DNA from: Gammaproteobacteria bacterium
GTDB lineage: Bacteria; Pseudomonadota; Gammaproteobacteria; Eutrophobiales; Eutrophobiaceae
DNA: 64,000 nucleotides
Direction: 5' to 3'
Assembly: GCA_965243205.1 (NCBI GenBank)
Contig: CBDEUK010000002.1
Span: 1,920,001-1,984,000 of the forward strand
The position numbers and the translations under genes are program-made. Under the pieces are notes generated by a model. It was not told where the DNA came from. It made no database searches and saw only the letters and a program-made list of their open reading frames with translations. Positions 2,509-47,217 of the stretch are shown here, one piece after another; position 1 is the stretch's first letter; the number at the start of each line of letters is the position of its first letter.

Positions 2509-2511
2509 TCC

Positions 2512-20149: not shown

Positions 20150-20958
20150 AATGGCTGTCGATATTACTTTTAATTGCCAACGTAGCCTATTTAGGCTGGG
20201 AGTTAGATCGACAAACCATGATTAATAATGCTTTGACGCAGCATAATTTACCTAAAATACCATCAGGCGTCTCACAACTTAGCTTTTTAGATTATTCTAA
20301 AGTGCTAGGAGATGAATTGCTTACGATTAATTCAATGGAAGAAACACCCCAACTTGCAGAAGTAAATTATAGTTCTAGCAGAACACTTGACTCCAATTTG
20401 GAGTTAGAACTTAGATTAGGTCAGTTAGAATCAATTAAAAAAGTCGCTAACGATAAATTAAATCAAAATGTTCCTTTGTGCATGAGTTATGGGCCTATTG
20501 AAGGAGATGCAAAGACTGATGAGCTACATAGTTATTTGACCTCGAACCAAGTCGTAGCTAGCAAACGTCAAGCGATTGAGGAAAGTAAGTTATATTGGGT
20601 TTATTTAACGTCTAATATGAATGAAGAAAAAGCCGCTGCAGTATTGGATGATTTGAAACAAAAGGGTGTTACTGATTATCAACATATCAAAAGCGGCAAG
20701 TTTAAAAATGCGATTTCTCTTGGGCTTTTTTCCTCAAAAGAACGTGTAGATGATCGTTTAGAAGAGATTAATGCGAAAGGATATGAGCCAGTTGTTGTGC
20801 CCTATCACAAACCAGATTTAGAGCGTATTTATTGGTTAGATGCACAATTTGATACCACTCCTGTAGATTTTGAGAATATCAATTCGGGTATTTCAAGCGA
20901 GTTTGATTCGAAAACAATTTCTTGTTCCGAGATTGCGTTGAGTACTAAGAATCCATAG
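20146..20958 (+). CDS. SPOR domain protein
   Basis: MKWLSILLLIANVAY anchor (ATGA overlap with coaX), CMSYGP, YWVYL, NAISLGLFS; usual birA-coaX-SPOR synteny. Confidence 0.85.
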   Translation: MKWLSILLLIANVAYLGWELDRQTMINNALTQHNLPKIPSGVSQLSFLDYSKVLGDELLTINSMEETPQLAEVNYSSSRTLDSNLELELRLGQLESIKKVANDKLNQNVPLCMSYGPIEGDAKTDELHSYLTSNQVVASKRQAIEESKLYWVYLTSNMNEEKAAAVLDDLKQKGVTDYQHIKSGKFKNAISLGLFSSKERVDDRLEEINAKGYEPVVVPYHKPDLERIYWLDAQFDTTPVDFENINSGISSEFDSKTISCSEIALSTKNP

Positions 20959-32723: not shown

Positions 32724-33326
32724 ATGAGTAAGCCGATTGTGTTGGCCAGTGGTAACAAAGGAAAAGTCCGTGAGATTTCACAAATGCTTGAACACTTGGA
32801 TTACGATGTGCAACCACAATCGGTTTATCAAGTTCCAGAAGTTCCTGAAACAGGATTAAGCTTTGTTGAAAATGCTTTGATAAAAGCACGTAATGCTTCA
32901 AAGCAAACAGGCTTACCTGCAATTGCCGATGATTCGGGTATTGCCGTTGATGCATTAAACGGCGCACCAGGAATTTATTCAGCGCGTTATGCAGGCGAAC
33001 CTTCTAATGATCTCGCAAACTTAAATAAATTAATCGAAGAAGTTAAAAACATTCCTGAACAAAATCGTGGCGCTGCTTTTGTTTGCGTAATGGTGTTTGT
33101 TCGTCATCATGAAGATCCATTACCGATTATTGCTGAAGGCATTTGGCGAGGTACTTTGGTGACAGAACCCGTTGGGGAAAATGGCTTTGGTTATGACCCC
33201 ATGTTTTATTTATCTGAACATCAATGTACTTCTGCACAACTAAAACCTGAACAAAAAAATACGATCAGCCATAGAGCGATTGCGTTACAAACATTATTAA
33301 CGCAATTAGAAGCTATCAATTTATAA
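32724..33326 (+). CDS. rdgB: dITP/XTP pyrophosphatase
   Basis: ASGNKGK, ADDSG, GAPGIYSARYA, GFGYDP, SHR. Confidence 0.97.
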   Translation: MSKPIVLASGNKGKVREISQMLEHLDYDVQPQSVYQVPEVPETGLSFVENALIKARNASKQTGLPAIADDSGIAVDALNGAPGIYSARYAGEPSNDLANLNKLIEEVKNIPEQNRGAAFVCVMVFVRHHEDPLPIIAEGIWRGTLVTEPVGENGFGYDPMFYLSEHQCTSAQLKPEQKNTISHRAIALQTLLTQLEAINL

Positions 33327-33331
33327 AATAC

Positions 33332-34291
33332 TCAATTATCCAAAGGACTGATCACGCCTCTGCCGCCTTTGTTCATTACATGTGTATAAATCATCGTAGT
33401 CTTTACATCTTTATGGCCTAATAAATCCTGAATGGTCCTTATATCATATCCATCTTCTAAAAGATGTGTTGCGAAAGAATGTCTAAGCGTATGACTGGTT
33501 ACAGGTTTTGTAAGGCCAATATTTCGTAATGCATTTTTAATTGCACGTTGAATGGTTTTTTCATCAATATGATGACGACGTATTTTATTACTACGTGGAT
33601 CGATTGAACGTTTGTGCGATGGAAAAACATATTGCCAAGCCAATTCACGGGCAGCATTCGGATATTTTCTCGATAAAGCAAACGGCAAATAAACTTCACC
33701 ATAACCTTCGTTCAAATCAGTATCATGTAATGTCTTAACGTGATGAATTTGTTTGTGGAGTTCTAGCAATAAAATTTCTGGTAAGACTGTTTTTCGATCT
33801 TTTCCTCCTTTACCATCTCGAATATTAATTGAATGATATTCAAAGTCGATGTCCTTGACTCTAAGCCGTATCGCTTCCATTAATCTCATACCTGTGCCAT
33901 ACATTAATCGAGCTATAAGACTATTAATACCCGTTATTTCAGATAATAATAAATTCACTTCAGGCTTGGTTAACACCACTGGTAGTCGTTTCGGCTTCTT
34001 TGCACGCACAACATCGTTAATCCAATCTATCTCTAATGATAAAACTTCCTTATATAAAAATAATAAAGCAGATAAAGCTTGATTTTGAGTTGAAGCTGAG
34101 ACATTCTTTTCTACAGCTAAATCAGTCAAAAAAGCGGTGACTTCTGGTTCACCCATATCTTTTGGATGTTTTTTATTATGGAAGTATATAAAGCGTTTGA
34201 TCCACTGAAGATAAGCTTCTTCAGTACGAATACTATAATGGCGGACACGGATTGCGTCCCGAACTTGATCCAACAATTTAGGTTGCTTCAT
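33332..34291 (-). CDS. intI: Integron integrase (tyrosine recombinase)
   Basis: RHYSIRTEEAY, ASTQNQAL, YGTGMR, GKGGKDR, IntI-specific insert VYLPFALSRKYPNAARELAWQYVFPS, HTLRHSFATHLL, LLGH, TMIYTHV; GGAGG SD. Confidence 0.98.
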   Translation of the reverse strand: MKQPKLLDQVRDAIRVRHYSIRTEEAYLQWIKRFIYFHNKKHPKDMGEPEVTAFLTDLAVEKNVSASTQNQALSALLFLYKEVLSLEIDWINDVVRAKKPKRLPVVLTKPEVNLLLSEITGINSLIARLMYGTGMRLMEAIRLRVKDIDFEYHSINIRDGKGGKDRKTVLPEILLLELHKQIHHVKTLHDTDLNEGYGEVYLPFALSRKYPNAARELAWQYVFPSHKRSIDPRSNKIRRHHIDEKTIQRAIKNALRNIGLTKPVTSHTLRHSFATHLLEDGYDIRTIQDLLGHKDVKTTMIYTHVMNKGGRGVISPLDN

Positions 34292-34337
34292 ATCATCCTC
34301 CCTGCGATGTTTAAAAATCCATTTAGGTCTTGTTTTT

Positions 34338-34387
34338 TTGACCTAAACTATTGTTTTTATTATACCCCAGTTTTTTATACACCCCAA
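34338..34387. promoter_or_regulatory. Candidate overlapping Pint (minus strand) and Pc (plus strand) promoters
   Basis: Minus strand: TTGGGG (34382-34387)-N17-TATAAT (34359-34364). Plus strand: TTGACC (34338-34343)-N17-TATACC (34361-34366). Confidence 0.4.
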
Positions 34388-34412
34388 AAGTCGTTTTTTA
34401 ATCCGACAATTA

Positions 34413-34434
34413 GGGTGTCTAGTTATAGTTAGAG
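34413..34434 (+). other. attI site; crossover G^TT at 34428/34429
   Basis: GTTAGAGAGATT (34428-34439) is the exact reverse complement of AATCTCTCTAAC at the end of cassette 1 (34808-34819), as expected for an integrated cassette circle. Confidence 0.85.
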
Positions 34435-34441
34435 AGATTAA

Positions 34442-34855
34442 ATGAAAAAACTACTTTTAATATTTCTCTTGTTATCAGGCTGCACTTCCTTTCATGCTCA
34501 AGTTCAAAATAAAAATACCCTTTATAACTTGAGTGAATCTGAAGCATTTTCATTGATGGAAACAGTTATAAATAATTCTGTTCTAAATGGAGAGTTTGAT
34601 AAATATAGTGAATTTGCAGAAATATTTTCTGTATTTATTGGTGATGTAAAAGGCGTATATAGTTTTGAAAAACGTAATGAGGGAATTGAAATCACTTTTA
34701 GTATTATTGGTGAAAATGTGCCGGTTTGGGAATCAGCGAATTTTGATAAATTTAATGATTTATATTTGAAATTGCATGAAATGTTCAAACAAAAATCAGA
34801 AGAGAAAAATCTCTCTAACAAATTATTCCAGCCGACCGCTTACGCGGCCGGCTGA
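34442..34855 (+). CDS. Cassette 1: hypothetical lipoprotein
   Basis: Lipobox LSGC; the stop codon lies inside attC1. Confidence 0.8.
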   Translation: MKKLLLIFLLLSGCTSFHAQVQNKNTLYNLSESEAFSLMETVINNSVLNGEFDKYSEFAEIFSVFIGDVKGVYSFEKRNEGIEITFSIIGENVPVWESANFDKFNDLYLKLHEMFKQKSEEKNLSNKLFQPTAYAAG

Positions 34856-34870
34856 ATTCAAACGTTATGT
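34813..34870 (+). repeat. attC1 (58 bp, family A)
   Basis: CTCTAAC-AAATT-ATTCCAGCCGACCGC-TTAC-GCGGCCGGCTGAAT-TCAAAC-GTTATGT. Confidence 0.93.
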
Positions 34871-34890
34871 TTTATTAAAGGATCCTATAA

Positions 34891-35478
34891 ATGAATAAAC
34901 TTGGTTTTGTATTATTGTTTTCTATATTTCTTATCTCTTGTGGAACTGCTCCGGAAAAGCAATATTCTAATTCTGTTGCAAACTCTTCAAACCCTGCTCT
35001 AACTAGCAAAGAGGCCATTGATAAATCGAAACATATAGAAATAAAAGAAAAAGAAATAATAAGAGCTGAAATTAGACTAGAAGATCCAACAATTCAATAT
35101 GGTGGGATTATATCTAATTATAAAATATTTAAAATTAATGCTAAACAAAATAAAAAATATACTATTGAGTTAAGGACATTATGTAGTTGTTTTAGCTGGA
35201 CCAAACATATTCTTTTTCCTGTAGCTTATTTAATGGATTCAAACGGCAATACAATTAATAGCAAACCAATAAAATTCGAAAAAGGATCTGAAGGGCTTAC
35301 ATTACCTGCTAATTTACATCTAATTTTCGAAGGTAGATTTCCTGAAAACGATACCTATTATTTTATGATTGCCGCTGACAATAGCAATATTGGAGAACCT
35401 ATTATTACTTATCAAAATGGCTTCACTATAGATAGCTATCCTACTGGAGACATAATAATTAGTTATAACCATGAATGA
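34891..35478 (+). CDS. Cassette 2: hypothetical lipoprotein
   Basis: Lipobox LISC; AAGGA SD; beta-rich domain with CSC. Confidence 0.8.
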   Translation: MNKLGFVLLFSIFLISCGTAPEKQYSNSVANSSNPALTSKEAIDKSKHIEIKEKEIIRAEIRLEDPTIQYGGIISNYKIFKINAKQNKKYTIELRTLCSCFSWTKHILFPVAYLMDSNGNTINSKPIKFEKGSEGLTLPANLHLIFEGRFPENDTYYFMIAADNSNIGEPIITYQNGFTIDSYPTGDIIISYNHE

Positions 35479-35484
35479 AATAAA

Positions 35485-35547
35485 ACATAACAAATTATTC
35501 AACTGGAACGCGCCTAAGCGGCGCGCCCGTTAATTCCACCGTTATGT
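35485..35547 (+). repeat. attC2 (63 bp, family B)
   Basis: ACATAAC-AAATT-ATTCAAC...GCGCCTAAGCGGCGC...GTTAAT-TCCACC-GTTATGT. Confidence 0.9.
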
Positions 35548-35565
35548 GTATATGGAATATATATT

Positions 35566-35799
35566 ATGAAAATGATAGCGATATTACTTAATTTAATATT
35601 ATTAAGTTTTGTAGGTTATTTAATATATGACAAAGGAATACCAGATGATGAAGAATTTTTTATTTTTTTATTATTTACTGCAACGCCATTTTTTAATTTG
35701 ATAGCTATTTTGACAAGTCATGGTGAAACTTTTTTAAGTTTATACTTAAAAAGAAAAGCTCTAGAGGAAAAGAAAAAAATTGAAAATCTTCAGAGATAA
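35566..35799 (+). CDS. Cassette 3: small 2-TM protein with a basic C-terminal helix
   Basis: 77 aa, two hydrophobic segments, then LYLKRKALEEKKKIE. Confidence 0.75.
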   Translation: MKMIAILLNLILLSFVGYLIYDKGIPDDEEFFIFLLFTATPFFNLIAILTSHGETFLSLYLKRKALEEKKKIENLQR

Positions 35800-35823
35800 A
35801 AAAATCATATTTTCAAAAAAAAC

Positions 35824-35881
35824 ATATAACAAGTCATTCAAGCCAACCGCTTGCGCGGTCGGCTGAATTCAAACGTTAGCT
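35824..35881 (+). repeat. attC3 (58 bp, family A)
   Basis: ATATAAC...ATTCAAGCCAACCGCTTGCGCGGTCGGCTGAATTCAAAC-GTTAGCT. Confidence 0.92.
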
Positions 35882-35888
35882 CTTAATA

Positions 35889-36302
35889 ATGGATATTAAT
35901 AGATTGCATACGAAACGTCAGTTAAACGTTCAAGAACAAAATGCTCTTGAGAAAAGTAGTATTATGGAAGTGGCCAAATCATACTTAGCAAAAGAACTAC
36001 ATACCGCTTGGGTGAGTGATGCGCTGAAATCTAAAGCTATTAATTCTGATCTAGGTATTCTTATAAAAGTTTCATCAACTCCTTGTGGAGGAAATGAACA
36101 ATCTTCATATGCAACATGGCTAACAGTAGATGAACAGTTTTATGAGATTGAGGCAACAACGATATTAGATAGCTATGAATTAGTATCCGTTGATGTTATT
36201 GATAATAGCTCTGAAGTAGTAGAGATAAGTAGCCATCTTCGCGGCAAAGGTAAGAGCTTTGGACAACTTTCGTTAGAGATTCTCAATGAATTATCAAAAT
36301 AG
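35889..36302 (+). CDS. Cassette 4: hypothetical protein
   Basis: 137-aa ORF filling the interval between attC3 and attC4. Confidence 0.75.
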   Translation: MDINRLHTKRQLNVQEQNALEKSSIMEVAKSYLAKELHTAWVSDALKSKAINSDLGILIKVSSTPCGGNEQSSYATWLTVDEQFYEIEATTILDSYELVSVDVIDNSSEVVEISSHLRGKGKSFGQLSLEILNELSK

Positions 36303-36360
36303 AGCTAACAAATCATTCCAGGCGACCGCTAACGCGTCCGGCTGAATTCAAACGTTAGCG
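36303..36360 (+). repeat. attC4 (58 bp, family A)
   Basis: AGCTAAC...ATTCCAGGCGACCGCTAACGCGTCCGGCTGAATTCAAAC-GTTAGCG. Confidence 0.9.
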
Positions 36361-36368
36361 GTAAAAAA

Positions 36369-36713
36369 ATGGAAATATCAGAATTTACAGGTAAACGATA
36401 CGATTTGGCGATTGATCTATTCCAGGAAAGAAAGGATAGTTTGCTATATGAAGGTATTCTTTTCATAAACAAGGGAAACTTAATAGAAGTCAATTCATAT
36501 TCCGATTGGGAGCTGGAAAGAATCACTGAAGCCGTGGCAAAAGAAAAGATTGAAAGGTCAAAGCAAGTAATTCACCAACTATCAGTAAGCAGTAAAGAAT
36601 TCAAAGAAATTGAGTCCGTACTACCTAAAGAGTATGTATTCTGTCATGACTATCATACTGGTGCAGTAATGCTCGCGAGTGAAATAAAAGGTGAATTTAA
36701 ATGGCACCTATAA
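36369..36713 (+). CDS. Cassette 5: hypothetical protein
   Basis: 114-aa ORF between attC4 and attC5. Confidence 0.75.
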   Translation: MEISEFTGKRYDLAIDLFQERKDSLLYEGILFINKGNLIEVNSYSDWELERITEAVAKEKIERSKQVIHQLSVSSKEFKEIESVLPKEYVFCHDYHTGAVMLASEIKGEFKWHL

Positions 36714-36723
36714 ACATAATAAC

Positions 36724-36781
36724 CGCTAACAAGTCATTCCAGCCGACCGCTAGTGCGGCCGGCGGAACTCAAACGTTAGAT
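36724..36781 (+). repeat. attC5 (58 bp, family A)
   Basis: CGCTAAC...ATTCCAGCCGACCGCTAGTGCGGCCGGCGGAACTCAAAC-GTTAGAT. Confidence 0.92.
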
Positions 36782-36786
36782 TTTAT

Positions 36787-37092
36787 ATGTCAGATCTATT
36801 ATTTTTGTATTTTATAGCCTTTATATCTAACATCTATATTGGATATTCTGAGTCAGTGAAAAAAACTGAAGAAATAATAGGTATTTCTCAAGGCATTTTA
36901 ATTGGTTTAATTATTGGTGTTATTTGTTTAGCAATTTTTAAAGTAACAAGTTTTATTTGGGCATTTGCAAAAAAAAATCAAAAGAAATCTATAGGTGCAA
37001 TAATTGGTGTGAGTTATTCCCTTTTTTGCATCTCAGTTATGATTTTTTGTTGTGTTGCCACAGGTAACCTGACAGAGTATTTAATATCATGA
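36787..37092 (+). CDS. Cassette 6: small membrane protein (about 3 TM segments)
   Basis: Hydrophobic 101-aa ORF between attC5 and attC6. Confidence 0.7.
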   Translation: MSDLLFLYFIAFISNIYIGYSESVKKTEEIIGISQGILIGLIIGVICLAIFKVTSFIWAFAKKNQKKSIGAIIGVSYSLFCISVMIFCCVATGNLTEYLIS

Positions 37093-37104
37093 ATTACTCG
37101 AAAA

Positions 37105-37162
37105 ACCTAACAAGTTATTCCAGCCGGCCGCTGTCACAGCCGGCTAAATTCAAACGTTAGTT
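37105..37162 (+). repeat. attC6 (58 bp, family A)
   Basis: ACCTAAC...ATTCCAGCCGGCCGCTGTCACAGCCGGCTAAATTCAAAC-GTTAGTT. Confidence 0.88.
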
Positions 37163-37164
37163 CT

Positions 37165-37524
37165 ATGAAATTATCTGCATATATGGCAATTATATTGGGA
37201 TTGGTGTTGGCATTCCTTGAAGCTGTTAGAAATTGGGGTAATTGGCAGTGGTGGCCATATTGGGTAATCGACTACATTATGGCCGTACTATTAATCAGTG
37301 GTGGCATTCTAGTATTGCTAGGCAAAAAAGCTTCAGGTCGGGTTTTAGCTTGTGCATGGGGAGTATCTTTTGGTGCAGGCTATATGAGTTTTTGGAGCCA
37401 TGTAGAAAATTTTCATAATCCTGCTCATGGAAACATTAGCCAAGCGCCATTGACGTACTTAATTGGGTTTGGTCTTATTTGTTGTATTATTGGTTTTTTA
37501 CTAACCGTATATGGAGAAAACTAA
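37165..37524 (+). CDS. Cassette 7: 4-TM membrane protein
   Basis: 119 aa, four hydrophobic segments, Trp-rich loop WGNWQWWPYW. Confidence 0.78.
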   Translation: MKLSAYMAIILGLVLAFLEAVRNWGNWQWWPYWVIDYIMAVLLISGGILVLLGKKASGRVLACAWGVSFGAGYMSFWSHVENFHNPAHGNISQAPLTYLIGFGLICCIIGFLLTVYGEN

Positions 37525-37527
37525 AAT

Positions 37528-37585
37528 GACTAACGAGTCATTCCAGTCGATCTCTTACATCGGTGACGGAATTCAATCGTTAGTT
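37528..37585 (+). repeat. attC7 (58 bp, family A, drifted)
   Basis: GACTAAC...ATTCCAGTCGATCTCTTACATCGGTGACGGAATTCAATC-GTTAGTT; the inner stem is weakened. Confidence 0.75.
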
Positions 37586-37619
37586 TTATTAATAATAAAT
37601 TAAAAAATAAGGAGACATT

Positions 37620-38135
37620 ATGTATTTCAAAAATATAATAATTTTATCAGTAATATTTTTAGCCAGTGGTTGCGCCGGTCCTGTAGTAATTAATTATGCT
37701 CCTAGCTCTACGATGACAGTAGAGGGGGAATTGAAAGTAGGTGATTTTCGATACATTCCAGCTGAAGAAGAAGGTATTAAACCTAATCAATTAAAAAATA
37801 CTGCTCTAGGTGAAATTATTTTAGAGAAAAATATTGATGAATACATTGAAACAGCTTTGTTTACTGAATCTAGATTCGTTGGCATAAAGCTAACAGATTC
37901 TGCTAAAGTTATTACAGGAGATATTAAAGAATTTTTAGTCGATGACCTTGGTTATAGTATTGATTGGACATTGGATATACGTTACGTGATTAGCGATTGT
38001 TATGATAAATCTCATAAACTTGAGAAAAACACAGATAAATTTTCGAATCCTTTTGGTGCTTTGAATGAAGTGGTTAAACTAAATATTGAAATGTTATTCA
38101 ATGATTTTCAGTTTAAAGAATGTATTAAAAACTAA
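37620..38135 (+). CDS. Cassette 8: hypothetical lipoprotein
   Basis: Lipobox ASGC; AAGGAG SD. Confidence 0.8.
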   Translation: MYFKNIIILSVIFLASGCAGPVVINYAPSSTMTVEGELKVGDFRYIPAEEEGIKPNQLKNTALGEIILEKNIDEYIETALFTESRFVGIKLTDSAKVITGDIKEFLVDDLGYSIDWTLDIRYVISDCYDKSHKLEKNTDKFSNPFGALNEVVKLNIEMLFNDFQFKECIKN

Positions 38136-38192
38136 TAATTCATTTTATCAGGGTGCGCCTAAGCGGCGTGCCCATTAATTCCTTTGTTATCT
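38130..38192 (+). repeat. attC8 (63 bp, family B, degenerate)
   Basis: AACTAAT (AAC changed to AAT)...GTGCGCCTAAGCGGCGTGCCCATTAATTCCTTT-GTTATCT; colinear with attC2. Confidence 0.75.
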
Positions 38193-38206
38193 CTCTTAAA
38201 AGCTAG

Positions 38207-38827
38207 ATGACAAAAACTGTTAAACCACCCAAACAAGACTTGGCAATGTTGCTTGGGAAGATTCGTAATTGTCGCGAATGTGCTTCTGCCTTACCGCACA
38301 AACCTCGCCCCGTTCTAGCTGCTGGAATCGATGCAAAAATTTTAATTATTGGGCAAGCTCCTGGAAAACGCGTTCAAGACTCAGGAGTCGCTTGGAACGA
38401 TGCGAGTGGTGATCGGCTTCGAGAATGGCTCGGTTTGGATTCGAATATATTTTATGATGAATCATTCATTGCGTTGATGCCTATGGGGTTCTGTTACCCA
38501 GGAACTGGAGATTCTGGTGACCTGCCTCCACGACCCGAATGTGCTCCACTATGGCATGAGCCGTTGCTTGAGCTTTTATCTAATGTACGATTGACTTTAT
38601 TAGTTGGAGCTTATGCCCAACGACATTATTTATCTAAAAAAAGTAAGAGAACACTAACTGAGACTGTCGCTGCTTGGAAGGAGTATCGACCAAAATACGT
38701 ACCACTCCCACATCCGAGCCCACGAAATAATATTTGGATGAAAAAGAATCCTTGGTTTGATGATATGGTATTACCATACTTGAAACAGAGGGTTGGACGA
38801 TTGTTGAAGGAGCGTAACGCGACATAA
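38207..38827 (+). CDS. Cassette 9: uracil-DNA glycosylase superfamily protein
   Basis: CREC, IIGQAPG, WNDASGDRLREWLG, FCYPG, PRPEC, LPHPSPRN. Confidence 0.9.
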   Translation: MTKTVKPPKQDLAMLLGKIRNCRECASALPHKPRPVLAAGIDAKILIIGQAPGKRVQDSGVAWNDASGDRLREWLGLDSNIFYDESFIALMPMGFCYPGTGDSGDLPPRPECAPLWHEPLLELLSNVRLTLLVGAYAQRHYLSKKSKRTLTETVAAWKEYRPKYVPLPHPSPRNNIWMKKNPWFDDMVLPYLKQRVGRLLKERNAT

Positions 38828-38869
38828 CAAAGACACTGATTCGTTACTGCTTGAATTCAACTGTAAGGC
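38822..38869 (+). repeat. attC9 remnant (internally deleted)
   Basis: ACATAACAA...GCTTGAATTCAACT-GTAAGGC; only 48 bp, with GTT changed to GTA. Confidence 0.55.
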
Positions 38870-38904
38870 TTATCATTAAATTATTCAACAATTGTGGAAA
38901 TTTT

Positions 38905-39285
38905 ATGATTACTAATGAACAACGACAAATTATTTTAAATGCATTAAGCGATGCGAGTGAGCGTTGGAAGAATGCATTTAATTCAGGCGATGCTTCAGCC
39001 TGCGCATTACAATATGAAGCAAACGCTGTGATGACAGCTAAACCATTTGGGACATTTAATGGTACAGAAGAAATACAGGCATTCTGGCAAAAATTAATTG
39101 ATGATGGCTTTTGCGATGTTGAATATGTAAATCCTGAAATAAAAATTGTTGATGTTAATAGTGCTGTCTTGTCAGCAGAATGGAAAATGAATAAAGCTAA
39201 AGGGGTTATTACTAAAGAATTATGGGTAATGCAGAGTGATGGAACTGCAAAGTTACGCATTGATGAGTTTGAGGCACAAGGTTAG
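38905..39285 (+). CDS. SnoaL/DUF4440 NTF2-like protein
   Basis: WKNAFNSGDA...YEANAVM...GTEEIQAFW...KELWV. ATG 38905 preferred over the track's 38851. Confidence 0.82.
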   Translation: MITNEQRQIILNALSDASERWKNAFNSGDASACALQYEANAVMTAKPFGTFNGTEEIQAFWQKLIDDGFCDVEYVNPEIKIVDVNSAVLSAEWKMNKAKGVITKELWVMQSDGTAKLRIDEFEAQG

Positions 39286-39350
39286 AAATCAAATCCACAA
39301 AACTTAAAAACATTTTATTTGAGCGTTAGGTATTTTAGAGAATAATTTTT

Positions 39351-39728
39351 ATGAATTTACAAAATAACAAAGAAAACGCTATTTCATTCTATAAAATGGC
39401 ATATATGGGTAATCCTGTTGAAGCTGTAAAGCTATACGTTGGTGATGAATATATACAACATAATCCTTTAGTAGGTAATGGCAAGCAGGCATTCATAGAA
39501 TATTTTGAAAAGATGGCAGCGGAGTATCCTGACAAAGAAATAAAATTTGTACGTGCGGTAGCAGAAAATGATTTGGTAGCTTTACATACGCATCAGAAAT
39601 GGCCTGGCGACGAAGAATACGTAACAATAGATTTTTTCAGATTTGATGCAAACGGAAAAATTATTGAACATTGGGATTCAATACAATTAATCCCATCGGA
39701 AACTAAAAATGGCAACACGATGTATTAG
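39351..39728 (+). CDS. SnoaL-like NTF2 family protein
   Basis: YIQHNP, GKQAFIEYF, AENDLVALH, DFFRFD, GKIIEHWD. Confidence 0.88.
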   Translation: MNLQNNKENAISFYKMAYMGNPVEAVKLYVGDEYIQHNPLVGNGKQAFIEYFEKMAAEYPDKEIKFVRAVAENDLVALHTHQKWPGDEEYVTIDFFRFDANGKIIEHWDSIQLIPSETKNGNTMY

Positions 39729-39788
39729 TAAAATACATAATAATTTATTCAATTATTATGTGATGTAGCTAGATAGGAAGTAAGTATA

Positions 39789-40145
39789 ATGAAAATGAAT
39801 TATTTCGTTTTTGGAACAAACGATATGACAAAGGCCGTTAGTTTCTATGACAATATTTTTGATGGCTCTGAAGTAAATAAAATTCATGATGAAGGACGGA
39901 TGACGTTATGGATGGGTGATGGTTTCATGTTTGCTCTTGCTGAGCCGTTTGATGGAAATGATGCAACAGTAGGAAATGGAACGATGATCGGTTTAAACCT
40001 TGATTCTTCATCTGAAGTCGATCGTATTCACAGCAAGGCAATTTCACTAGGTGCAAAAACGGAAGGTGAACCTGGAATGAGATCAGGAAGGTATTCTGCA
40101 TATTTTCGTGATCTTGATGGAAATAAAATTTGTGTATTTCAATGA
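39789..40145 (+). CDS. VOC/glyoxalase family protein
   Basis: GTNDMTKAVSFYD, GNGTMI, GAKTEGEPG, AYFRDLDGNKI. Confidence 0.9.
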   Translation: MKMNYFVFGTNDMTKAVSFYDNIFDGSEVNKIHDEGRMTLWMGDGFMFALAEPFDGNDATVGNGTMIGLNLDSSSEVDRIHSKAISLGAKTEGEPGMRSGRYSAYFRDLDGNKICVFQ

Positions 40146-40238
40146 TCTAACTGAAAGTGTTTTAAGCTTATTATAGTCATTTAACAAATAGCCTATAAAT
40201 CATTTCAGTTAACTAAATTTATACATTAGATTGCATAC

Positions 40239-40640
40239 GTGAAATTATTAAAAAAATTGCATTTTTATTTAGGTATATTACTGATTTTGGTTTTTATACT
40301 TACAGGTCAATACATGCATCACTTTCATTCCCATCTTGAGAACATGTCTGATGGCCCTAGAATGCTATATAGATCTGCACACATATATATTTTCCTCTCT
40401 TCTTTATTAAACATTATGTTTGGTGTTTACTTAATTAAATTTAATCAACACCATAAAATTATAATCCAATACATCACATCCATAATAATATTGATTTCGC
40501 CATTTTTATTATTAATCGGTTTTTTCTTAGAGCCTCAATTATTAGATTTAGAAAGACCCTATAGTAGAATAGGCATCTATAGTCTTTTAATTGCAGCAAT
40601 GTTGCTTATTTATCTAGGGTTTTCTGGAGATAAGAAGTAA
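40239..40640 (+). CDS. Hypothetical 4-TM membrane protein
   Basis: Hydrophobic 133-aa ORF with His-containing helices (LHF, TGQYM, RSAHIY). Confidence 0.72.
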   Translation: MKLLKKLHFYLGILLILVFILTGQYMHHFHSHLENMSDGPRMLYRSAHIYIFLSSLLNIMFGVYLIKFNQHHKIIIQYITSIIILISPFLLLIGFFLEPQLLDLERPYSRIGIYSLLIAAMLLIYLGFSGDKK

Positions 40641-40685
40641 TTTAAAAAAATATCAAACTATCGTATAGCTTAAGGTTTAATTCAT

Positions 40686-41072
40686 ATGATTGTCATTTAC
40701 GGGATCAAAGAAAAACTCAATCCGATAAAAGGAAAATTATCAGATGTTATCCATCATTGTATGAGAAACGTTCTTGGTATGCCTGAAGATAAAAGAGCAC
40801 ATCGTTTTATTCCATTAGAAAAAGAGGATTTTTATTATCCTGTTGGTAGAAGCGATGCTTATACTGTTATCGAAATTAACATGATGTCAGGACGAAAACC
40901 TGAAACACAAAAACAATTAATAAAAACACTATTTCAAGAAATAGAAAAACAACTTTCTATTCAAACTATAGATATAGAAATAACCATTAAAGAACAAGCG
41001 CCTTATCAATGGGGTTTTCGAGGTATGACGGGTGATGAAGCAAACGATCTTAAATATAAAGTGAATGTATGA
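40686..41072 (+). CDS. Tautomerase family protein
   Basis: LGMPEDKRAHRF, RSDAYTVIEI, GRKPETQKQL, WGFRG. Confidence 0.87.
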   Translation: MIVIYGIKEKLNPIKGKLSDVIHHCMRNVLGMPEDKRAHRFIPLEKEDFYYPVGRSDAYTVIEINMMSGRKPETQKQLIKTLFQEIEKQLSIQTIDIEITIKEQAPYQWGFRGMTGDEANDLKYKVNV

Positions 41073-41142
41073 ACATCATATTCATAAACTGATAATTACA
41101 TTGATTTAATTCAAATAGTAAATGCTCTAATGGAGAAATAGT

Positions 41143-41376
41143 TTGAGTAAAGGCCAATCAAAAAAAATGAGTTTTATTGAAAGCACCGCCAGTATTATTG
41201 CTGGTTATATTATTACGGTGCTTATTCAATATTGGCTTTATCCATTATTTGGCATTAGTATTCCAGCGACAGAAGCTTTGATTATCTCTGTTATCATTGT
41301 TATTGCAGCTTTTATAAAGAATTTTTCTATTCGTCGTTTATTTAATTTTATTCAGGTTCGCAGTGAGTCGAACTAG
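41143..41376 (+). CDS. Small 2-TM protein (resembles DUF7220-type proteins)
   Basis: QSKKMSFIES...GY...Q...YPLFG...RRLFN pattern; GGAG SD before TTG. Confidence 0.65.
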   Translation: MSKGQSKKMSFIESTASIIAGYIITVLIQYWLYPLFGISIPATEALIISVIIVIAAFIKNFSIRRLFNFIQVRSESN

Positions 41377-41400
41377 AGATATCTTTGGTGTGGTAAAAAA

Positions 41401-41778
41401 ATGAAAATCAAACGCTTGCTAACCAATATTTGCTCTCAAAATTTAGAACAATCAAAAAAGTTTTATACGTCATTGTTTGCATTTAAAGTAGATTATGACA
41501 GCGATTGGTTTATTCATCTTATATCTGAAGGTAGAGATTTAGAGTTAGGCATCATATCTGAGAACCATGAAATTGTTCCCGCACAAACAAGAGGTAGTAT
41601 TTCAGGTGTTTATCTAACATTTGTGATTGAAGATGTTGATTCTTTTCATCAAAAAGCTAAAAGCTTAGGTTACGAAATATTACAATCTCCTGAAATGACG
41701 CCTTATGGTCAAAAACGTATGTTATTAGTTTCTCCAGAAGGTACAATCTGTGATGTGTCATCACCAACTAATACTTAG
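41401..41778 (+). CDS. VOC/glyoxalase family protein
   Basis: SKKFYTSLF, YDSDWF, LTFVIEDVD, YGQKR, PEG. Confidence 0.87.
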   Translation: MKIKRLLTNICSQNLEQSKKFYTSLFAFKVDYDSDWFIHLISEGRDLELGIISENHEIVPAQTRGSISGVYLTFVIEDVDSFHQKAKSLGYEILQSPEMTPYGQKRMLLVSPEGTICDVSSPTNT

Positions 41779-41853
41779 AAAGCCATTTGTTTTTTTATGA
41801 AAATGGTCAATATAAATAATGGGGTTACTTAATAGTTTAATAGGAGAGAAAAC

Positions 41854-42252
41854 ATGAATATGAAACGTTTTATCATTGCCGGGATTAGTGCCTTTGTTTT
41901 TGTCTTTTTTTATGAGTTTCTTGTGCATGGTTTTTTGATGCTGGAGCAATATGAACAAACAATGGATGTCTGGCGTCCACAAGAAGAAGCCAATATGTTA
42001 ATTATGACTTTAAGCCAGTTTTTATTTGGAATGGCCGTAGCCTTTTTTTATCCTATTGTTGGGCTAGATACAGATTGTAAAAAAGCGATTCCTTTTGGTG
42101 TTGGGTTAGGCCTTGTTATGGGCGTGCCACAAATTGCTACTTATTGTTATTTACCAATTCCTTTACAAATGAGTTTATCATGGGCTGTGATCGAGTTTAT
42201 AAAAGGTTTGGGCAGTTCAATTATTGTTTCTAAAGTTTACAATTGGAAATAG
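41854..42252 (+). CDS. Hypothetical 4-TM membrane protein
   Basis: AGGAG SD; four hydrophobic segments; the stop codon abuts an attC. Confidence 0.78.
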   Translation: MNMKRFIIAGISAFVFVFFYEFLVHGFLMLEQYEQTMDVWRPQEEANMLIMTLSQFLFGMAVAFFYPIVGLDTDCKKAIPFGVGLGLVMGVPQIATYCYLPIPLQMSLSWAVIEFIKGLGSSIIVSKVYNWK

Positions 42253-42309
42253 TTTAACGAATCTACCAGCCCGTGGTAACACACGGGCTTTCTAATTCAA
42301 ACGTTATGC
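42252..42309 (+). repeat. Distal attC-like site (58 bp)
   Basis: GTTTAAC...AGCCCGTG-GTAACA-CACGGGCT...AATTCAAAC-GTTATGC. Confidence 0.7.
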
Positions 42310-42366
42310 GATAATGGAATGATTGTATCTTTTAACAGATTGTTAGATATATTTTATGTAGAAAAA

Positions 42367-42570
42367 ATGAAAAAATATTTTGTTAAAGTCCCATTAGTTT
42401 TATTCGTTCTTATTTTTGAATCTGCTTGTAGTACGGAACAGATTTACAATGCGTTTCGTGAAAATAGAGTTCAGGAATGTCAACCTTTGAGAGGTTCAGA
42501 AAGAGAACGTTGTTTAGAATCCGTAGAAGATACTCATGATGAGTACCAAGAAAAACGAAAAAACACATAG
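42367..42570 (+). CDS. Small putative lipoprotein
   Basis: MKKYFVKVPLVLFVLIFESAC, then ECQ...RC...YQEKR. The track ORF starts at 42319. Confidence 0.65.
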   Translation: MKKYFVKVPLVLFVLIFESACSTEQIYNAFRENRVQECQPLRGSERERCLESVEDTHDEYQEKRKNT

Positions 42571-42603
42571 GTCTAATGAGTAAAATCGAACTTAAATTTT
42601 TAA

Positions 42604-43026
42604 ATGGAATATTCTGCTAACTGCAAGTGTGGAAAAGTTGCAGTACTTCTCTCAATTTCGCATGATATTGAAAACCTTGAGCCTCGAGAATGTGATTGTG
42701 ATTTTTGTAGTTCACATGAATTGATTTATCTGTCGGAATCTAACGGCAAGCTTTCGATAGAAGCACATGATACTCTCAAACAACTAAAACAAGGTTCTGA
42801 ACAAGCCATCTTTTGGCAGTGTGTATTTTGTGATCAAATAATTGCCGTAACCAGCGAGTTTGAAGGAAAAATAAAAGGAGCAGTCAATGGTAAATTGTTT
42901 GCCAAAGATAGAAAACTTAAAACTCCAATCACAGTATCCCCAAAATTACTATCAGCAACGGAAAAGCGTGCACGTTGGCAAACTATGTGGTTAACAGTAA
43001 ATTTCAATATAAAAACACAAACCTAA
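42604..43026 (+). CDS. GFA (glutathione-dependent aldehyde-activating)/CENP-V family protein
   Basis: CKCGKV, RECDCDFC and CVFC zinc-binding motifs. Confidence 0.85.
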   Translation: MEYSANCKCGKVAVLLSISHDIENLEPRECDCDFCSSHELIYLSESNGKLSIEAHDTLKQLKQGSEQAIFWQCVFCDQIIAVTSEFEGKIKGAVNGKLFAKDRKLKTPITVSPKLLSATEKRARWQTMWLTVNFNIKTQT

Positions 43027-43045
43027 CTTATTATCAGATTATATT

Positions 43046-43375
43046 ATGGAATTGATTTTTTATCTCTTTATAGTGATTTTTATTAGCATCATGATTTTTT
43101 GGGTTCTAGGTTTTTTATATGGGCTACTTAGAAAACCTGCGATTTATTTTCCTTTCAGTCTTGCCGCAAAAATGGCGTTGGTTGGATTTGTAGGTGTTTG
43201 GTTTTTTATGATAGGAGGAGTTATTCTTCCTGCTTTAATTCTCGACAATGCAATGTCTAAACGATCCGATTATAAGCAATGGCCCACATTAATTGCTGGT
43301 GGCATTATTTCGCTAATATCAATACCTTTAATTTATTATATAGCCCTTGTACTAGCATTCGAAATTCTAGGATAG
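43046..43375 (+). CDS. Hypothetical membrane protein (last ORF of the array)
   Basis: Hydrophobic 109-aa ORF, convergent with lptG. Confidence 0.65.
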   Translation: MELIFYLFIVIFISIMIFWVLGFLYGLLRKPAIYFPFSLAAKMALVGFVGVWFFMIGGVILPALILDNAMSKRSDYKQWPTLIAGGIISLISIPLIYYIALVLAFEILG

Positions 43376-43387
43376 GTAATATGAATA

Positions 43388-44473
43388 TTAAGCTTTTATT
43401 AGTTGTGTGAAATTATCTTTGTACAACATTCCCAAAACAAATGCAGATAGAAGTAACAGAGGAATGATCATGCTTATAAATGCAGGAATATTATAAACTA
43501 CGCCTAGATGACCAAATACTTGGTTTAACATGTGAAATAAAATTCCTAATAAACATCCTAGAAAAACACGTTGTCCTACATTATTTTGTCGTGAATGAAT
43601 TTTAATAATCGGCACCGCTATAACCACCATTAAGAAAATCGTAAATGGTTTTGACAACTTAGACCAAAATGCTTGTTCGTATACTTGGCTATTTTGTTCA
43701 TTTTCTTTTAAGTAACTTATGTAACTATATAAACCCCATAGCGTTAAAAACTTAGGTTTAATCGTGATCAGATTTAAAACTTCTGGATTTAATACCGATT
43801 CCCAATTGGCAAGTTTGATGGGTTTGCTAACAATCCCTTCATCCGAAATTAACGATTGTTTAACGTCTTCAAGCTGCCATTTGCCATCGATATAGTTGGC
43901 TTTTTTTGCATAGATACTACTGATTAAAATATTATTATCGGTAAATTCATAAATATAAATATCTTCGACTTCGTTGCCAGAAATAATTTTACGAATATTG
44001 ACAAAATTATTTTCATTGCGTGACCAAAAGCCGTATTTGGTTTGCAGGGTAATTTGTTCCGTCATAGCAATGGATTTGCGATGTTCAGCAGCTTGTTCAG
44101 AATATGGTGCAATGAATTCACTCACAACAAACGCAATCAGAATTAAAATAAAAATGCCTTTGGATAAAATTTTGATTAGATTGGTTTGTGATACACCTGA
44201 CGTCCGAATAATCGCAAGTTCATTTTGACTCGACATCTTACCTAAAGCCATCATGCCACCGATTGCTGCGGCAATTGGAAATAGTTCAGACACCAAGTTA
44301 GGAATTGTTAATAATAAATGCTCTAAAGCTTGCATTACACCATAACGACCTTGACCTGAATCTTCTAGTTCATCAATCAAAGCGAAAAATGCAAAAATGC
44401 CTACTAATACTGCTAGCGCTAAAAAGGTCGAGCGCAGTAATGATGTAGTTAAATAACGGTCGAGTATTCTCAT
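43388..44473 (-). CDS. lptG: LPS export ABC transporter permease
   Basis: MRILDRYL, NELAIIRTSGVS, YEQAFWSK; follows lptF. Confidence 0.93.
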   Translation of the reverse strand: MRILDRYLTTSLLRSTFLALAVLVGIFAFFALIDELEDSGQGRYGVMQALEHLLLTIPNLVSELFPIAAAIGGMMALGKMSSQNELAIIRTSGVSQTNLIKILSKGIFILILIAFVVSEFIAPYSEQAAEHRKSIAMTEQITLQTKYGFWSRNENNFVNIRKIISGNEVEDIYIYEFTDNNILISSIYAKKANYIDGKWQLEDVKQSLISDEGIVSKPIKLANWESVLNPEVLNLITIKPKFLTLWGLYSYISYLKENEQNSQVYEQAFWSKLSKPFTIFLMVVIAVPIIKIHSRQNNVGQRVFLGCLLGILFHMLNQVFGHLGVVYNIPAFISMIIPLLLLSAFVLGMLYKDNFTQLIKA

Positions 44474-45579
44474 GAGCGTTGTTCAGTATATTCTTGATAA
44501 GAATATTTACGACGACGTTTTTTAATATTACTAATCGCAAATAAAATAAATAAAAATACAATCATTAAAACGTGAACCCACCACAAACCGAGAAAGGGTG
44601 ATAGTTGATCACGACTCAACATAGTTTTTGATATGCCAAGTAAATTGGTATAGATAATATAAATCAATAAGCCAATAAAAATTAAAGTGTATTGTTTGTC
44701 GTTCCATGAAAGACTGTTTAGTAATACAGCTAACATGCTCAATAAAATACAACAAATAATTAGAGAAACACGCCATTGAAATTCGGCTTGATAAGAAGGA
44801 GTATCAGAGTTCATTAATTCTATTGTGCCAATGCCTTTAGGATCACGATGATTTGATTGTTCAGGATCCGTTTTCTCAATTAACACGGCGTAAGTTTCGT
44901 ATTCCGTGATTTGATAGTCTTGCTGACCTGGGTTTCCTACATAACGTCGACCATCTTTAAATACGATGTAACGATTACCTAATTCTTCATCCCACTCAAA
45001 ATTGGCAATATCTGATGAAAGCACACCTAATTTTTTCAATTCTCTGACCTGTAAAAACACATTCGACATGGCTGAGCGATCGGCACTTAAGCTTTCAACA
45101 TATACGACGCGATCACCTTTGCTGAATTCTTTAAAGCGGCCGGCTGTAATACCTGTGATATCTGAATCACGTTTAGCTTGTTCTTTCAATTCAGAAATCC
45201 GACCCTCAGCATACGGTGCGAGATAAAATACTAGACCACTGAATAAGAGTGAAAAGACCAAGGTAAAAGTTAAAGTGCTGGAATATTCAAAAGAACGTCC
45301 AGCCCCTGAAGTATGGAAGATGACTAATTCGTTATCTCGCACTAATCGTGAAAAAGCCAAAATCACCGAGATTAATAAACAAATGGGCAGCATTTTTGGC
45401 AAACTGGCGACAATTTTTAACCAAAGAAAGGTGGTAACGAGTTGAGTCGAAATTTTGCCAGATGCTGCATCGGCTAGATAACCGACATAGTATTTACTAA
45501 TAAATATCAATAGTAAAAGTGCACAGATCGGTAATAACTTATATGCGATCTCTTTGTAGATGTATTTATGTAAGATCAA
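44470..45579 (-). CDS. lptF: LPS export ABC transporter permease
   Basis: YLADAASGKI, RDNELVI, AGRF, AEFQWR, GLWWVH; divergent from pepA. Confidence 0.93.
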   Translation of the reverse strand: MILHKYIYKEIAYKLLPICALLLLIFISKYYVGYLADAASGKISTQLVTTFLWLKIVASLPKMLPICLLISVILAFSRLVRDNELVIFHTSGAGRSFEYSSTLTFTLVFSLLFSGLVFYLAPYAEGRISELKEQAKRDSDITGITAGRFKEFSKGDRVVYVESLSADRSAMSNVFLQVRELKKLGVLSSDIANFEWDEELGNRYIVFKDGRRYVGNPGQQDYQITEYETYAVLIEKTDPEQSNHRDPKGIGTIELMNSDTPSYQAEFQWRVSLIICCILLSMLAVLLNSLSWNDKQYTLIFIGLLIYIIYTNLLGISKTMLSRDQLSPFLGLWWVHVLMIVFLFILFAISNIKKRRRKYSYQEYTEQRS

Positions 45580-45714: not shown

Positions 45715-47217
45715 ATGCAAATAGAATTCAGTATCAAAAGCGGTTCACCTGAAAAACAACGCACAACCTGTTTAGTTTTGCCTGTTTTCGAAGGTAGAAA
45801 ACTCTCTGATATAGCGAAAACCATTGATGAAGTTAGTGATAAATTTATTTCAACATTATTAAGACGTGGTGATATCGAGGGCAAAATAGGCCAAACATTG
45901 TTGCTTCATAATGTTCCTAACACCTTAGCTGATAGAGTGTTATTGGTTGGAGCAGGTAAAGAACGTGACTTATCAGATACAAGCTATCGCAAGATTATTT
46001 CTAGTTCAGTACAGTTTTTACGTGGTATTGGTGCACCTGAAGTGGTGAGTTATTTAACCGAATTAAATCTAAAAAATCGTGATATTTACTGGAAAGTTAA
46101 ACAAGCAGTAGAACAAACACGGTCGATCGCGTATGAATTTAACGAATTAAAATCGGGTAAAAAGCCAAAAACTAAGGCATTACGCAAACTGACTTGGACA
46201 GTACCAACCCGTCGTGAATTAACTGCTGGAGAAAAAGCAGTGGCTCATGGTGTCGCTGTTTCGAATGGTATGGACCTAATGCGCGATTTGGGTAACCGTC
46301 CGGGAAATATCTGTACTCCAACCTACCTAGGCAAACAAGCTCAGGCAATGGCGAAAGCGCATCGTAATTTAAAAGTGACAGTACTAGGCGAAAGCCAAAT
46401 GGAAAAACTGGGCATGGGATCTTTATTATCCGTTTCGCAAGGTAGTGAAGAAGAAGCCAAGATGGTTATTTTTGAATACAAAGGTGGTAAAAAAGATGCC
46501 AAGCCTTATGTATTCGTTGGTAAAGGTGTGACCTTTGATACAGGTGGTATCTCCATCAAACCTTCTCCAGCGATGGATGAAATGAAATACGACATGTGTG
46601 GTGCGGCCAGTGTGTTTGGGACCATGCAAGCTGTGGCTGAAATGAAACTGCCATTGAACGTTGTGGGTATTGTTCCAGCAACGGAAAATATGCCGAGTGG
46701 TACGGCAACTAAACCGGGTGATATCTTCAAAAGTATGTCTGGTCAAACCATCGAAGTATTGAATACCGATGCCGAAGGTCGTTTAATTCTTTGTGATGCT
46801 CTAACGTATAGTGAACGTTATGAACCTAAAGCGGTGGTAGATATTGCGACCTTAACAGGTGCATGTGTGATTGCTTTAGGTAAACATGCCTCTGGTTTAA
46901 TGAGTAACCATAACCCATTGGCGCGTGATTTATTAAACGCAGGTGATACCAGTGGTGACAGGGCTTGGCAGTTGCCACTATGGGATGAATACGATCAACA
47001 ACTCCATAGCCCGTTTGCTGATATGGCCAATATCGGTGGTAGAGATGCTGGTACCATTACTGCTGGATGTTTCTTAGGTCGTTTTACAAAAAAACTACAA
47101 TGGGCGCATTTAGATATTGCCGGTACTGCTTGGATTTCGGGTAAGAATAAAGGTGCAACAGGTCGACCAGTGCCATTATTAACGCAATATCTATTGGATA
47201 AGTGTCCTAAATCTTAA
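45715..47217 (+). CDS. pepA: Cytosol (leucyl) aminopeptidase, M17
   Basis: [35 protein letters not shown]. Confidence 0.97.

Follow-up and report, generated by a model that had tools for sequence, protein, structure and literature searches.

What occupies the interval between rdgB and lptG is the question raised by the 64-kb stretch of DNA analysed here, which we call the window and take at its full length. A preliminary description, made from the sequence alone, read the interval as a sedentary integron that carries about 20 cassettes, has a cassette pool of its own and sits at a site not recognised as a standard one for integrons. Our answer is that a complete chromosomal integron, with intI, a candidate attI and an attC array, is quite probably present in the ordinary divergent layout, and that eight mobilisable-looking cassettes are followed in it by a decayed array. 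The absence of mobility genes and the host-like composition stand as well, while the cassette count, the sedentary status, the private pool and the significance given to the site could not be upheld.

The element begins with the integrase gene and the spacer that separates it from the first cassette:

33332-34291, minus strand: intI, integron integrase of 319 aa (TIGR02249, PDB 2a3v, Pfam)
34292-34441, no strand assigned: intI-to-cassette spacer of 150 nt, with the candidate attI and the presumed promoters Pc and PintI

The intI product matches the NCBIfam family TIGR02249 ('integron integrase') over positions 1-313 of the 315-position profile, with 503.3 bits where the cut-off is 265. It also matches the Pfam families Phage_integrase (PF00589; E 6.6e-38, 130.6 bits against a cut-off of 27.1) and Phage_int_SAM_4. 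Residues 7-318 align with the solved structure of IntI4/VchIntIA (PDB 2a3v; E 3.1e-99) with a single one-residue gap, and this alignment covers the IntI-specific region (residues 183-237) together with the catalytic motifs RHSFATH, GH and IYTH. The IntI-specific region near patch III was judged by proxy, with TIGR02249 and 2a3v in place of the intI_Cterm profile of IntegronFinder. The earlier claim of an intact intI with the IntI-specific insert is confirmed by the TIGR02249 score and by the alignment running end to end through the insert; judged by its sequence, the gene is intact. In the spacer, a candidate attI core that resembles GTTRRRY is found as GTTATAG/GTTAGAG at 34421-34433.

We now consider the attC sites, of which the first eight each close a cassette with one open reading frame (ORF), at about 34.4-38.2 kb:

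34442-34870, plus strand: cassette 1, 137-aa lipobox (LSGC) protein (ORF 34442-34855) with attC1 (34813-34870)
34891-35547, plus strand: cassette 2, 195-aa lipobox protein (ORF 34891-35478) with attC2 (35485-35547, 63-nt subtype)
35566-35881, plus strand: cassette 3, 77-aa protein with two hydrophobic segments, with attC3 (35824-35881)
35889-36360, plus strand: cassette 4, 137-aa soluble protein with attC4 (36303-36360)
36369-36781, plus strand: cassette 5, 114-aa protein without assigned family, with attC5 (36724-36781)
36787-37162, plus strand: cassette 6, 101-aa membrane protein with attC6 (37105-37162)
37165-37585, plus strand: cassette 7, 119-aa membrane protein with attC7 (37528-37585)
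37620-38192, plus strand: cassette 8, 171-aa lipoprotein with attC8 (38130-38192, 63-nt subtype)
42252-42309, plus strand: attC9, full-length, with a divergent stem

By direct-repeat search, pattern scan and alignment, nine full-length attC sites of 58-63 nt were found, all on the plus strand and with invariant TAA...GTTA ends. The eight full-length sites in a row that had been described are all there (34813-38192), but the series is not confined to them: attC9 is a ninth, which the preliminary description had not counted among the full-length ones. The first site begins 522 nt from intI, and the sites of the eight-site run then follow every 334-677 nt. Six of the nine form one family with 63-100% identity; attC2 and attC8 make up the 63-nt subtype and are 73% alike. 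The R''/R' and L''/L' boxes, the unpaired central spacer, the extrahelical base and the terminal loop are all present in the alignment. Folded as single-stranded DNA, the bottom strand is paired at the R box and open at the spacer, and the L box then leads into a G+C-rich stem closed by a loop of 4-6 nt. On its 5' arm in the top strand, the L box carries a single additional base, which reads G in the bottom strand. The folding z-score lies between -2.75 and -4.9 in seven of the nine sites, with, for example, -14.9 kcal/mol and z -4.8 for attC1 and -10.4 kcal/mol and z -3.4 for attC9.

A covariance model called R1 was built from the nine window sites and run over the whole window with filters off. 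It recovers the nine training sites by construction with E values of at most 2.2e-8 (77.1 bits for attC1, 49.7 bits for attC9), and gives in addition four reverse-strand echoes of these sites and two weak plus-strand relics that are taken up below. Another 15 matches all have E values of at least 1.1 and lie outside the integron, except one on the minus strand at 38822-38849, and R1 gives no attC-like site elsewhere in the 64 kb. Since R1 matches its own training set by construction, it was tested on outside loci. BLAST of attC5 against plasmids gives sites of 79.7-85.1% identity at class 1 cassette boundaries, namely between a HAD-hydrolase cassette and aadA2 and, in another plasmid, just before qacEdelta1. 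On these two class 1 plasmid loci (12,102 nt, filters off), all five R1 matches fall on the cassette strand and at cassette ends, namely those that follow aac(6')-IIa, the HAD cassette, aadA2 (37.5 bits, E 1e-6) and cmlA1, and the one that precedes qacEdelta1. We also used the best 80 IntI-related loci among species-representative genomes. In these, R1 finds four sites in two loci, and its match in L054, from a methane-oxidising endosymbiont of Methylococcales type, scores 46.5 bits. With R2, a wider model trained on 19 sites, 28 sites come up in 16 of these loci; each of the 28 is upstream of intI and on the strand opposite to it, as is expected of cassettes. Because the outside matches of both models are correctly placed, the nine window sites are attC sites.

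Rfam holds no attC family. Among the R2 results is a locus in a metagenome-assembled genome (MAG) of Ideonella (L055, 121-8490, minus strand) with nine attC sites of about 110-130 nt, of the long-loop type, upstream of intI. The idea that the attC type of the window is rare among IntI-related integrons was dropped, since in most of the 80 loci the cassette-side sequence extends over just a few hundred bases, which makes them an unfair negative set.

A complete integron, as defined in PMC4889954, has a PF00589 recombinase, the IntI-specific region (here by the proxy described above) and at least one attC within 4 kb of intI, on the same strand as the other attC sites, and all of these are found in the window. 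IntI is a tyrosine recombinase with the integron-specific extra domain. In the mechanism that we propose, it would join attI to attC hairpins formed by the folded bottom strand, and would in this way insert, excise and reorder promoterless cassettes, whose transcription would start at a promoter within intI or beside it. The eight proximal cassettes, each with one small ORF and a 58-63-nt attC, look mobilisable. Beyond attC8 the array would be decayed, with nine genes for small enzymes and membrane proteins in a single attC8-attC9 unit, and the three last ORFs, which have no attC, would be fixed next to lptG.

Measured from G to G of successive R' boxes, the units are 677, 334, 479, 421, 381, 423 and 607 nt long, followed by one of 4,117 nt; the first cassette has about 440 nt when counted from the candidate attI core up to attC1. 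The 20 plus-strand ORFs (77-206 aa, within 34442-43375) were counted correctly in the preliminary description, but to speak of about 20 cassettes overstates what can be delimited, as only eight ORFs are bounded by attC sites, the next nine share the 4,117-nt unit, and the last three have no attC downstream.

No Pfam or NCBIfam family above cut-off was found in any of the eight attC-bounded cassettes; for the protein of cassette 1 there is no Pfam family, and for that of cassette 4 neither a Pfam family nor a usable Atlas match. Six of the eight products have an envelope-associated look by a crude hydropathy and lipobox count, three with a lipobox and three with two or three hydrophobic segments. 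The 171-aa lipoprotein of cassette 8 has 154 relatives with up to 69% identity, the named ones in Microbulbifer, Halopseudomonas, Vibrio and Rhodanobacter. For the 195-aa lipoprotein of cassette 2, 148 representatives are found at E of at most 0.001 including the protein itself (147 non-self), the best non-self ones at 41-42% identity. With these relatives, and with the copy of the tautomerase ORF in Vibrio described below, the cassette pool is not private to this integron, contrary to what had been proposed.

The distal half of the element is organised differently:

38193-42251, plus strand: block of nine ORFs without intact attC, read as fossilised cassettes
38207-38827, plus strand: UDG-superfamily protein (Pfam)
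38851-39285, plus strand: SnoaL-like protein (Pfam)
39351-39728, plus strand: SnoaL-like protein (Pfam)
39735-39761, plus strand: collapsed attC relic (R1 19.0 bits)
39789-40145, plus strand: glyoxalase-fold protein (Pfam)
40191-40231, plus strand: collapsed attC relic (R1 17.6 bits)
40239-40640, plus strand: protein with four transmembrane (TM) segments
40686-41072, plus strand: Tautomerase_2 protein (Pfam)
41143-41376, plus strand: DUF7220 protein (Pfam)
41401-41778, plus strand: glyoxalase-fold protein (Pfam)
41854-42252, plus strand: 2-TM protein
42319-43375, plus strand: three terminal ORFs without downstream attC, of 83 aa, 140 aa and 109 aa (4-TM)

The nine ORFs of the block lie between attC8 and attC9, and attC9 starts 4,059 nt past the end of attC8. 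Further remnants of attC sites had been reported in this half, and this holds for two collapsed sites, which are weak, while nothing better was found. In a search restricted to 38193-43387, the relic at 39735-39761 has an E value of 0.0098 and retains the R''/L'' and L'/R' ends with 31 central model positions deleted, and the relic at 40191-40231 has an E value of 0.022 with 16 central positions deleted. The latter overlaps a 70-nt inverted repeat, TCTAACTGAAA...TTTCAGTTAAC, at 40145-40214 (fold -8.4 kcal/mol, z -3.2). Both relics have the plus orientation and lie within intergenic spacers of the block. If the attC sites of the nine block genes have been lost or have collapsed in this way, the genes could be moved only as a block, if at all. 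Beyond attC9, R1 gives no attC in either the whole-window or the 38193-43387 run.

Half-sites can also be seen by eye in other spacers (around 38822-38872 and 39286-39350), without statistical support. A 138-aa antisense ORF (38844-39260, minus strand) overlaps the first SnoaL-like ORF and is probably spurious, since the Pfam match is in the plus-strand frame; this SnoaL-like ORF more plausibly starts with an ATG at about 38905 than with the TTG that is listed, which is doubtful. One glyoxalase-fold ORF was considered as a Fos enzyme and rejected, since its score of 23.8 bits is far under the FosM cut-off of 255. The 140-aa terminal ORF is, from its sequence, probably a divergent GFA-family protein, with a Pfam score of 15.5 bits, below the cut-off of 24.3, and an Atlas feature score of 0.96. 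No relatives of the DUF7220 ORF were found in the plasmid collection.

It is important to weigh the results that speak against a complete integron with a decayed array, and these are given in this paragraph and the next together with the alternatives that they bear on. To begin with, the attC sites were called with our own models and not with those of IntegronFinder, and these models match the window sites by construction. The main rival explanation is that the integron comprises only 33.3-38.2 kb, that the 12 distal ORFs are ordinary host genes, and that attC9 is a stray site, for example of a cassette at a secondary site. At 4,059 nt, the distance from attC8 to attC9 is more than the 4 kb within which IntegronFinder clusters sites (PMC4889954). 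The Pfam gathering cut-off is passed by seven of the nine block ORFs, all of them in ordinary enzyme or DUF families, as against none of the eight attC-bounded cassettes, so that the two halves of the array could differ in origin. The G+C content at third codon positions (GC3) of the block (0.263) is nearer to the host mean (0.291, 25 host genes) than is that of the proximal cassettes (0.226). Both relics come close to noise when searched window-wide (E 0.12 for 39735-39761 and 0.27 for 40191-40231), and a sequence-only attC hidden Markov model finds no relic beyond noise (best E 2.7). The best relative of the tautomerase ORF, with 68.8% identity, lies at 3995-4387 (plus strand) of L083, on a Vibrio sp. 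THAF190c replicon of 1.72 Mb that is filed as a plasmid and has two annotated features; this region has mixed gene orientation and no direct repeats of at least 40 nt, and membership of the Vibrio relative in a cassette array was ruled out on these two grounds. On the other side, attC9 is full-length and oriented as the array is, and the two relics in the block spacers have that orientation too. The distal ORFs are also cassette-like in size, spacing and strand, being twelve unrelated small genes on one strand with spacers of 12-93 nt. Moreover, just one of the 20 cassette proteins, that of a glyoxalase-fold ORF, has a relative in the 80 loci, a weak match of 35% identity that lies at the cassette side of L077, another integron locus. 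There is also a reported precedent in Xanthomonas, namely genes that have no recognisable attC but are found as cassettes in other genomes (bioRxiv 10.1101/2025.06.18.660453). We infer a cassette origin for the 12 distal ORFs, and regard the shorter integron as unlikely.

Another possibility is that intI is intact by sequence but unexpressed or inactive, and that the whole array is an inert relic. The folds of attC4 (z -1.43) and attC8 (z -1.15) are no better than those of shuffled sequences, and attC8 has a degenerate R'' box (TAAT) and a weak fold of -6.7 kcal/mol. A promoter scan of the spacer finds five promoter-like sites against 8.0 +/- 2.7 expected, so none above chance, and no LexA box (CTGT-N8-ACAG with at most one mismatch), the mark of SOS control, was found in the intI-attI spacer, the window having nine against 14.3 expected. 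Half of the array is, in addition, already without attC sites. Against a frozen element stand the full-length intI ORF with all catalytic motifs aligned to 2a3v, the strong folds of seven attC sites, and the good conservation of the proximal attC, and for this reason we find an inert relic quite unlikely. Two features of the spacer were noted by eye, a 5-bp inverted repeat (AGGTC...GACCT) at 34326-34345 and, after it, two direct repeats of about 17 nt that end in TATAC(A)CCCCA (34352-34386); these repeats could be binding sites of the integrase or of a regulator.

Returning to the integron as a whole, we ask how long it has been in this chromosome. Its flanks are the following:

32724-33326, plus strand: rdgB, Ham1-family dITP/XTP pyrophosphatase (Pfam Ham1p_like, E 7e-66), left flank, convergent with intI
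43388-44473, minus strand: lptG (Pfam LptF_LptG, E 8.5e-69), right flank
44470-45579, minus strand: lptF, next after lptG
45715-47217, plus strand: pepA (NCBIfam), beyond lptF

The junctions are exactly as first described, with 5 nt between the rdgB stop at 33326 and intI at 33332, and 12 nt between the last ORF, which ends at 43375, and lptG at 43388. Scans with Pfam and NCBIfam find no transposase, insertion sequence (IS), relaxase or plasmid gene inside the element or next to it. The statement that no transposase, resistance gene or toxin-antitoxin pair could be recognised also holds, as no such family, nor any defence family, was found with Pfam, NCBIfam and PADLOC; the number of PADLOC defence families in the 20 ORFs is zero. 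The window has about 35% G+C, and the GC3 of the cassettes is close to that of the 25 host genes but somewhat lower (0.245 and 0.291; Mann-Whitney p 0.012). The lack of mobility genes, the tight junctions and the homogeneous attC family all argue for residence, and we infer that the integron has been in the chromosome for long. The cumulative GC skew climbs near-monotonically over the window, from 0.13 to 4.90; the window is therefore assigned to a single replichore in which the plus strand is taken to be leading, and this, judged by GC skew alone, would place the attC bottom strands on the leading-strand template. The same orientation is reported for 25 of 30 sedentary integrons (PMC5371416).

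Sedentary status as such, which had been proposed, cannot be shown. The criteria given in PMC4889954 are presence in 100% of the genomes of a species or more than 19 attC sites, and the window has nine full-length sites and two relics. Nine of ten proteins that were looked up are found, each in a singleton cluster at 90% identity and all from one contig of 2,333,710 nt; Rph, the tenth, taken with a TTG start, gave no match in this look-up. The site had not been recognised as a standard one for integrons in the preliminary description, but lineage-specific sites are usual for chromosomal integrons, for example downstream of ilvD in Xanthomonas (bioRxiv 10.1101/2025.06.18.660453), so that an unfamiliar rdgB-lptG site is to be expected.

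That the integron arrived recently, as a mobile integron or as part of an island, is very unlikely. In its favour, the attC sites are short with 4-6-nt loops, a type commoner in mobile integrons (PMC5371416), they resemble the attC of class 1 cassettes at the identities given above, and among the best 80 loci no IntI exceeds 67% identity and none has rdgB, rph, lptG or lptF nearby; against it, mobility genes are absent, the base composition is near that of the host, the junctions are tight, IntI is just 52.5% identical to IntI1, and six of the nine attC belong to one family, such homogeneity being linked to larger chromosomal arrays (PMC4889954). By the same comparison IntI is not a class 1 integrase. 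The best plasmid-borne relative among the matches listed, from a cyanobacterial plasmid, has 61.1% identity (at least 5,000 records were listed, 4,999 of them below 60%). Assignment to a mobile integron class was rejected on these two identities and on the absence of transposition genes, with IntI2, IntI3 and IntI5 outside the direct comparison.

Where, then, does the element belong among known integrons? The 80 IntI loci have 55-67% identity and come from many phyla, the best being the Methylococcales MAGs L009 and L013 with 66-67%. In a larger protein collection, 37 of 119 non-self clusters among the matches listed are at least 70% identical to IntI, the best with 78% being from a metagenome, and two clusters at 72% are named 'MAG: integron integrase [Gammaproteobacteria bacterium]'. 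With relatives at 70-78%, IntI is part of a populated environmental clade. In a tree of 80 rows (the window IntI, IntI1 from two plasmid loci, and 77 of the 80 loci, three with fewer than 250 aa or with X having been dropped), the window IntI stands alone on a terminal branch of 0.54 with no supported sister. A limited literature search returned no description of an integron at rdgB.

The best IntI relatives are found in environmental gammaproteobacterial integrons (Methylococcales and MAGs), which have the same divergence of intI and cassettes, but the rdgB/lptG neighbourhood of the present element occurs in none of the 80 loci. The Xanthomonas integron, compared by its published description, is alike in its fixed site by a housekeeping gene, its short attC of aadA type and its genes without attC (bioRxiv 10.1101/2025.06.18.660453; PMC8352920), but it sits at ilvD and not at rdgB/lptG, and the host here has about 35% G+C. 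Class 1 integrons share the architecture, and R1 matches the attC of aadA2, aac(6')-IIa, cmlA1 and two other cassettes, whereas the present element is chromosomal, with no Tn402 or 3'-conserved segment context, no resistance gene and the integrase identity given above. The superintegron of V. cholerae is likewise chromosomal, with an integrase that aligns end to end (2a3v) and with cassettes mostly of unknown function, but no toxin-antitoxin cassettes were found here with Pfam and NCBIfam. The attC sites of Vibrio arrays are predominantly 120-129 nt long, and arrays with bottom strands on the leading-strand template have up to 203 cassettes (PMC5371416), in contrast to the nine attC of 58-63 nt in the window. 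A complete integron is reported in 20% of gammaproteobacterial genomes, and cassettes of unknown function are the rule (PMC4889954). The element is a standard integron in every respect tested and a new example of a well-known kind.

As regards the host, the best matches of PepA are metagenome proteins with 86% identity and MAGs labelled 'Gammaproteobacteria bacterium' with about 70%, and the host is a gammaproteobacterium without close named relatives. Some further observations concern the rest of the window. The gene hemW (55270-56418, plus strand) has the same orientation as rdgB and is found 22 kb downstream of it, and between the two are the integron, lptGF, pepA, valS and an RND efflux pair. 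We take rdgB and hemW (yggV-yggW) to be neighbours in E. coli, and their separation here suggests an old rearrangement or an insertion at the rdgB-hemW junction. The sole Rfam family in the window is the bacterial class A RNase P RNA (2164-2511, plus strand, 342.9 bits). For seven ORFs of 262-419 aa outside the integron (3931-4854, 10208-10996, 12476-13372, 13514-14578, 17364-18305, 20131-20958 and 22131-23390), no NCBIfam family was found at E of at most 1e-5. A 551-aa protein (15523-17178, plus strand) has a VWA-like N-terminal part and an FHA-like C-terminal part, by weak NCBIfam matches.

The understanding of integrons is left unchanged by this element. It is one more chromosomal integron, from a little-sampled gammaproteobacterial lineage and on a contig of 2.33 Mb, integrons being reported as most frequent in genomes of 4-6 Mb (PMC4889954). 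It offers a compact example of array decay, in which eight intact cassettes are followed by collapsed or lost attC sites and cassettes may be seen becoming fixed chromosomal genes. As the attC8-attC9 gap is slightly above the 4-kb limit, automatic annotation may split the element and stop at 38.2 kb.

The attC sites are similar to those of resistance cassettes common in the clinic, although the array holds no resistance gene, and this similarity provides one tentative lead. Ghaly et al. describe a 'Xanthomonadales-like' attC class in which 935 of 941 sites are from Xanthomonadales, in 54 of 56 genomes; 19 clinical resistance cassettes are put in this class, the aadA2 attC is given as Xanthomonadales in their Table 1, and the authors state that they cannot tell a taxonomic from an ecological basis of the class (PMC8352920). 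As a proxy for their clade model we have the match of R1 to the Xanthomonadales-assigned aadA2 attC, and a similar attC is found also in the Methylococcales-type symbiont locus L054. A host with 35% G+C is unlikely to be a typical member of the Xanthomonadales, so the array could be an example outside that order. It is a doubtful but conceivable reading that the short aadA-type, Xanthomonadales-like class is present here in a non-Xanthomonadales gammaproteobacterium. If it were true, the attC class would have a second home in this lineage, outside the Xanthomonadales. This would help to tell whether the class stands for a taxon or for a habitat, and would lengthen the list of possible source pools for cassettes of the aadA, aac and catB types.

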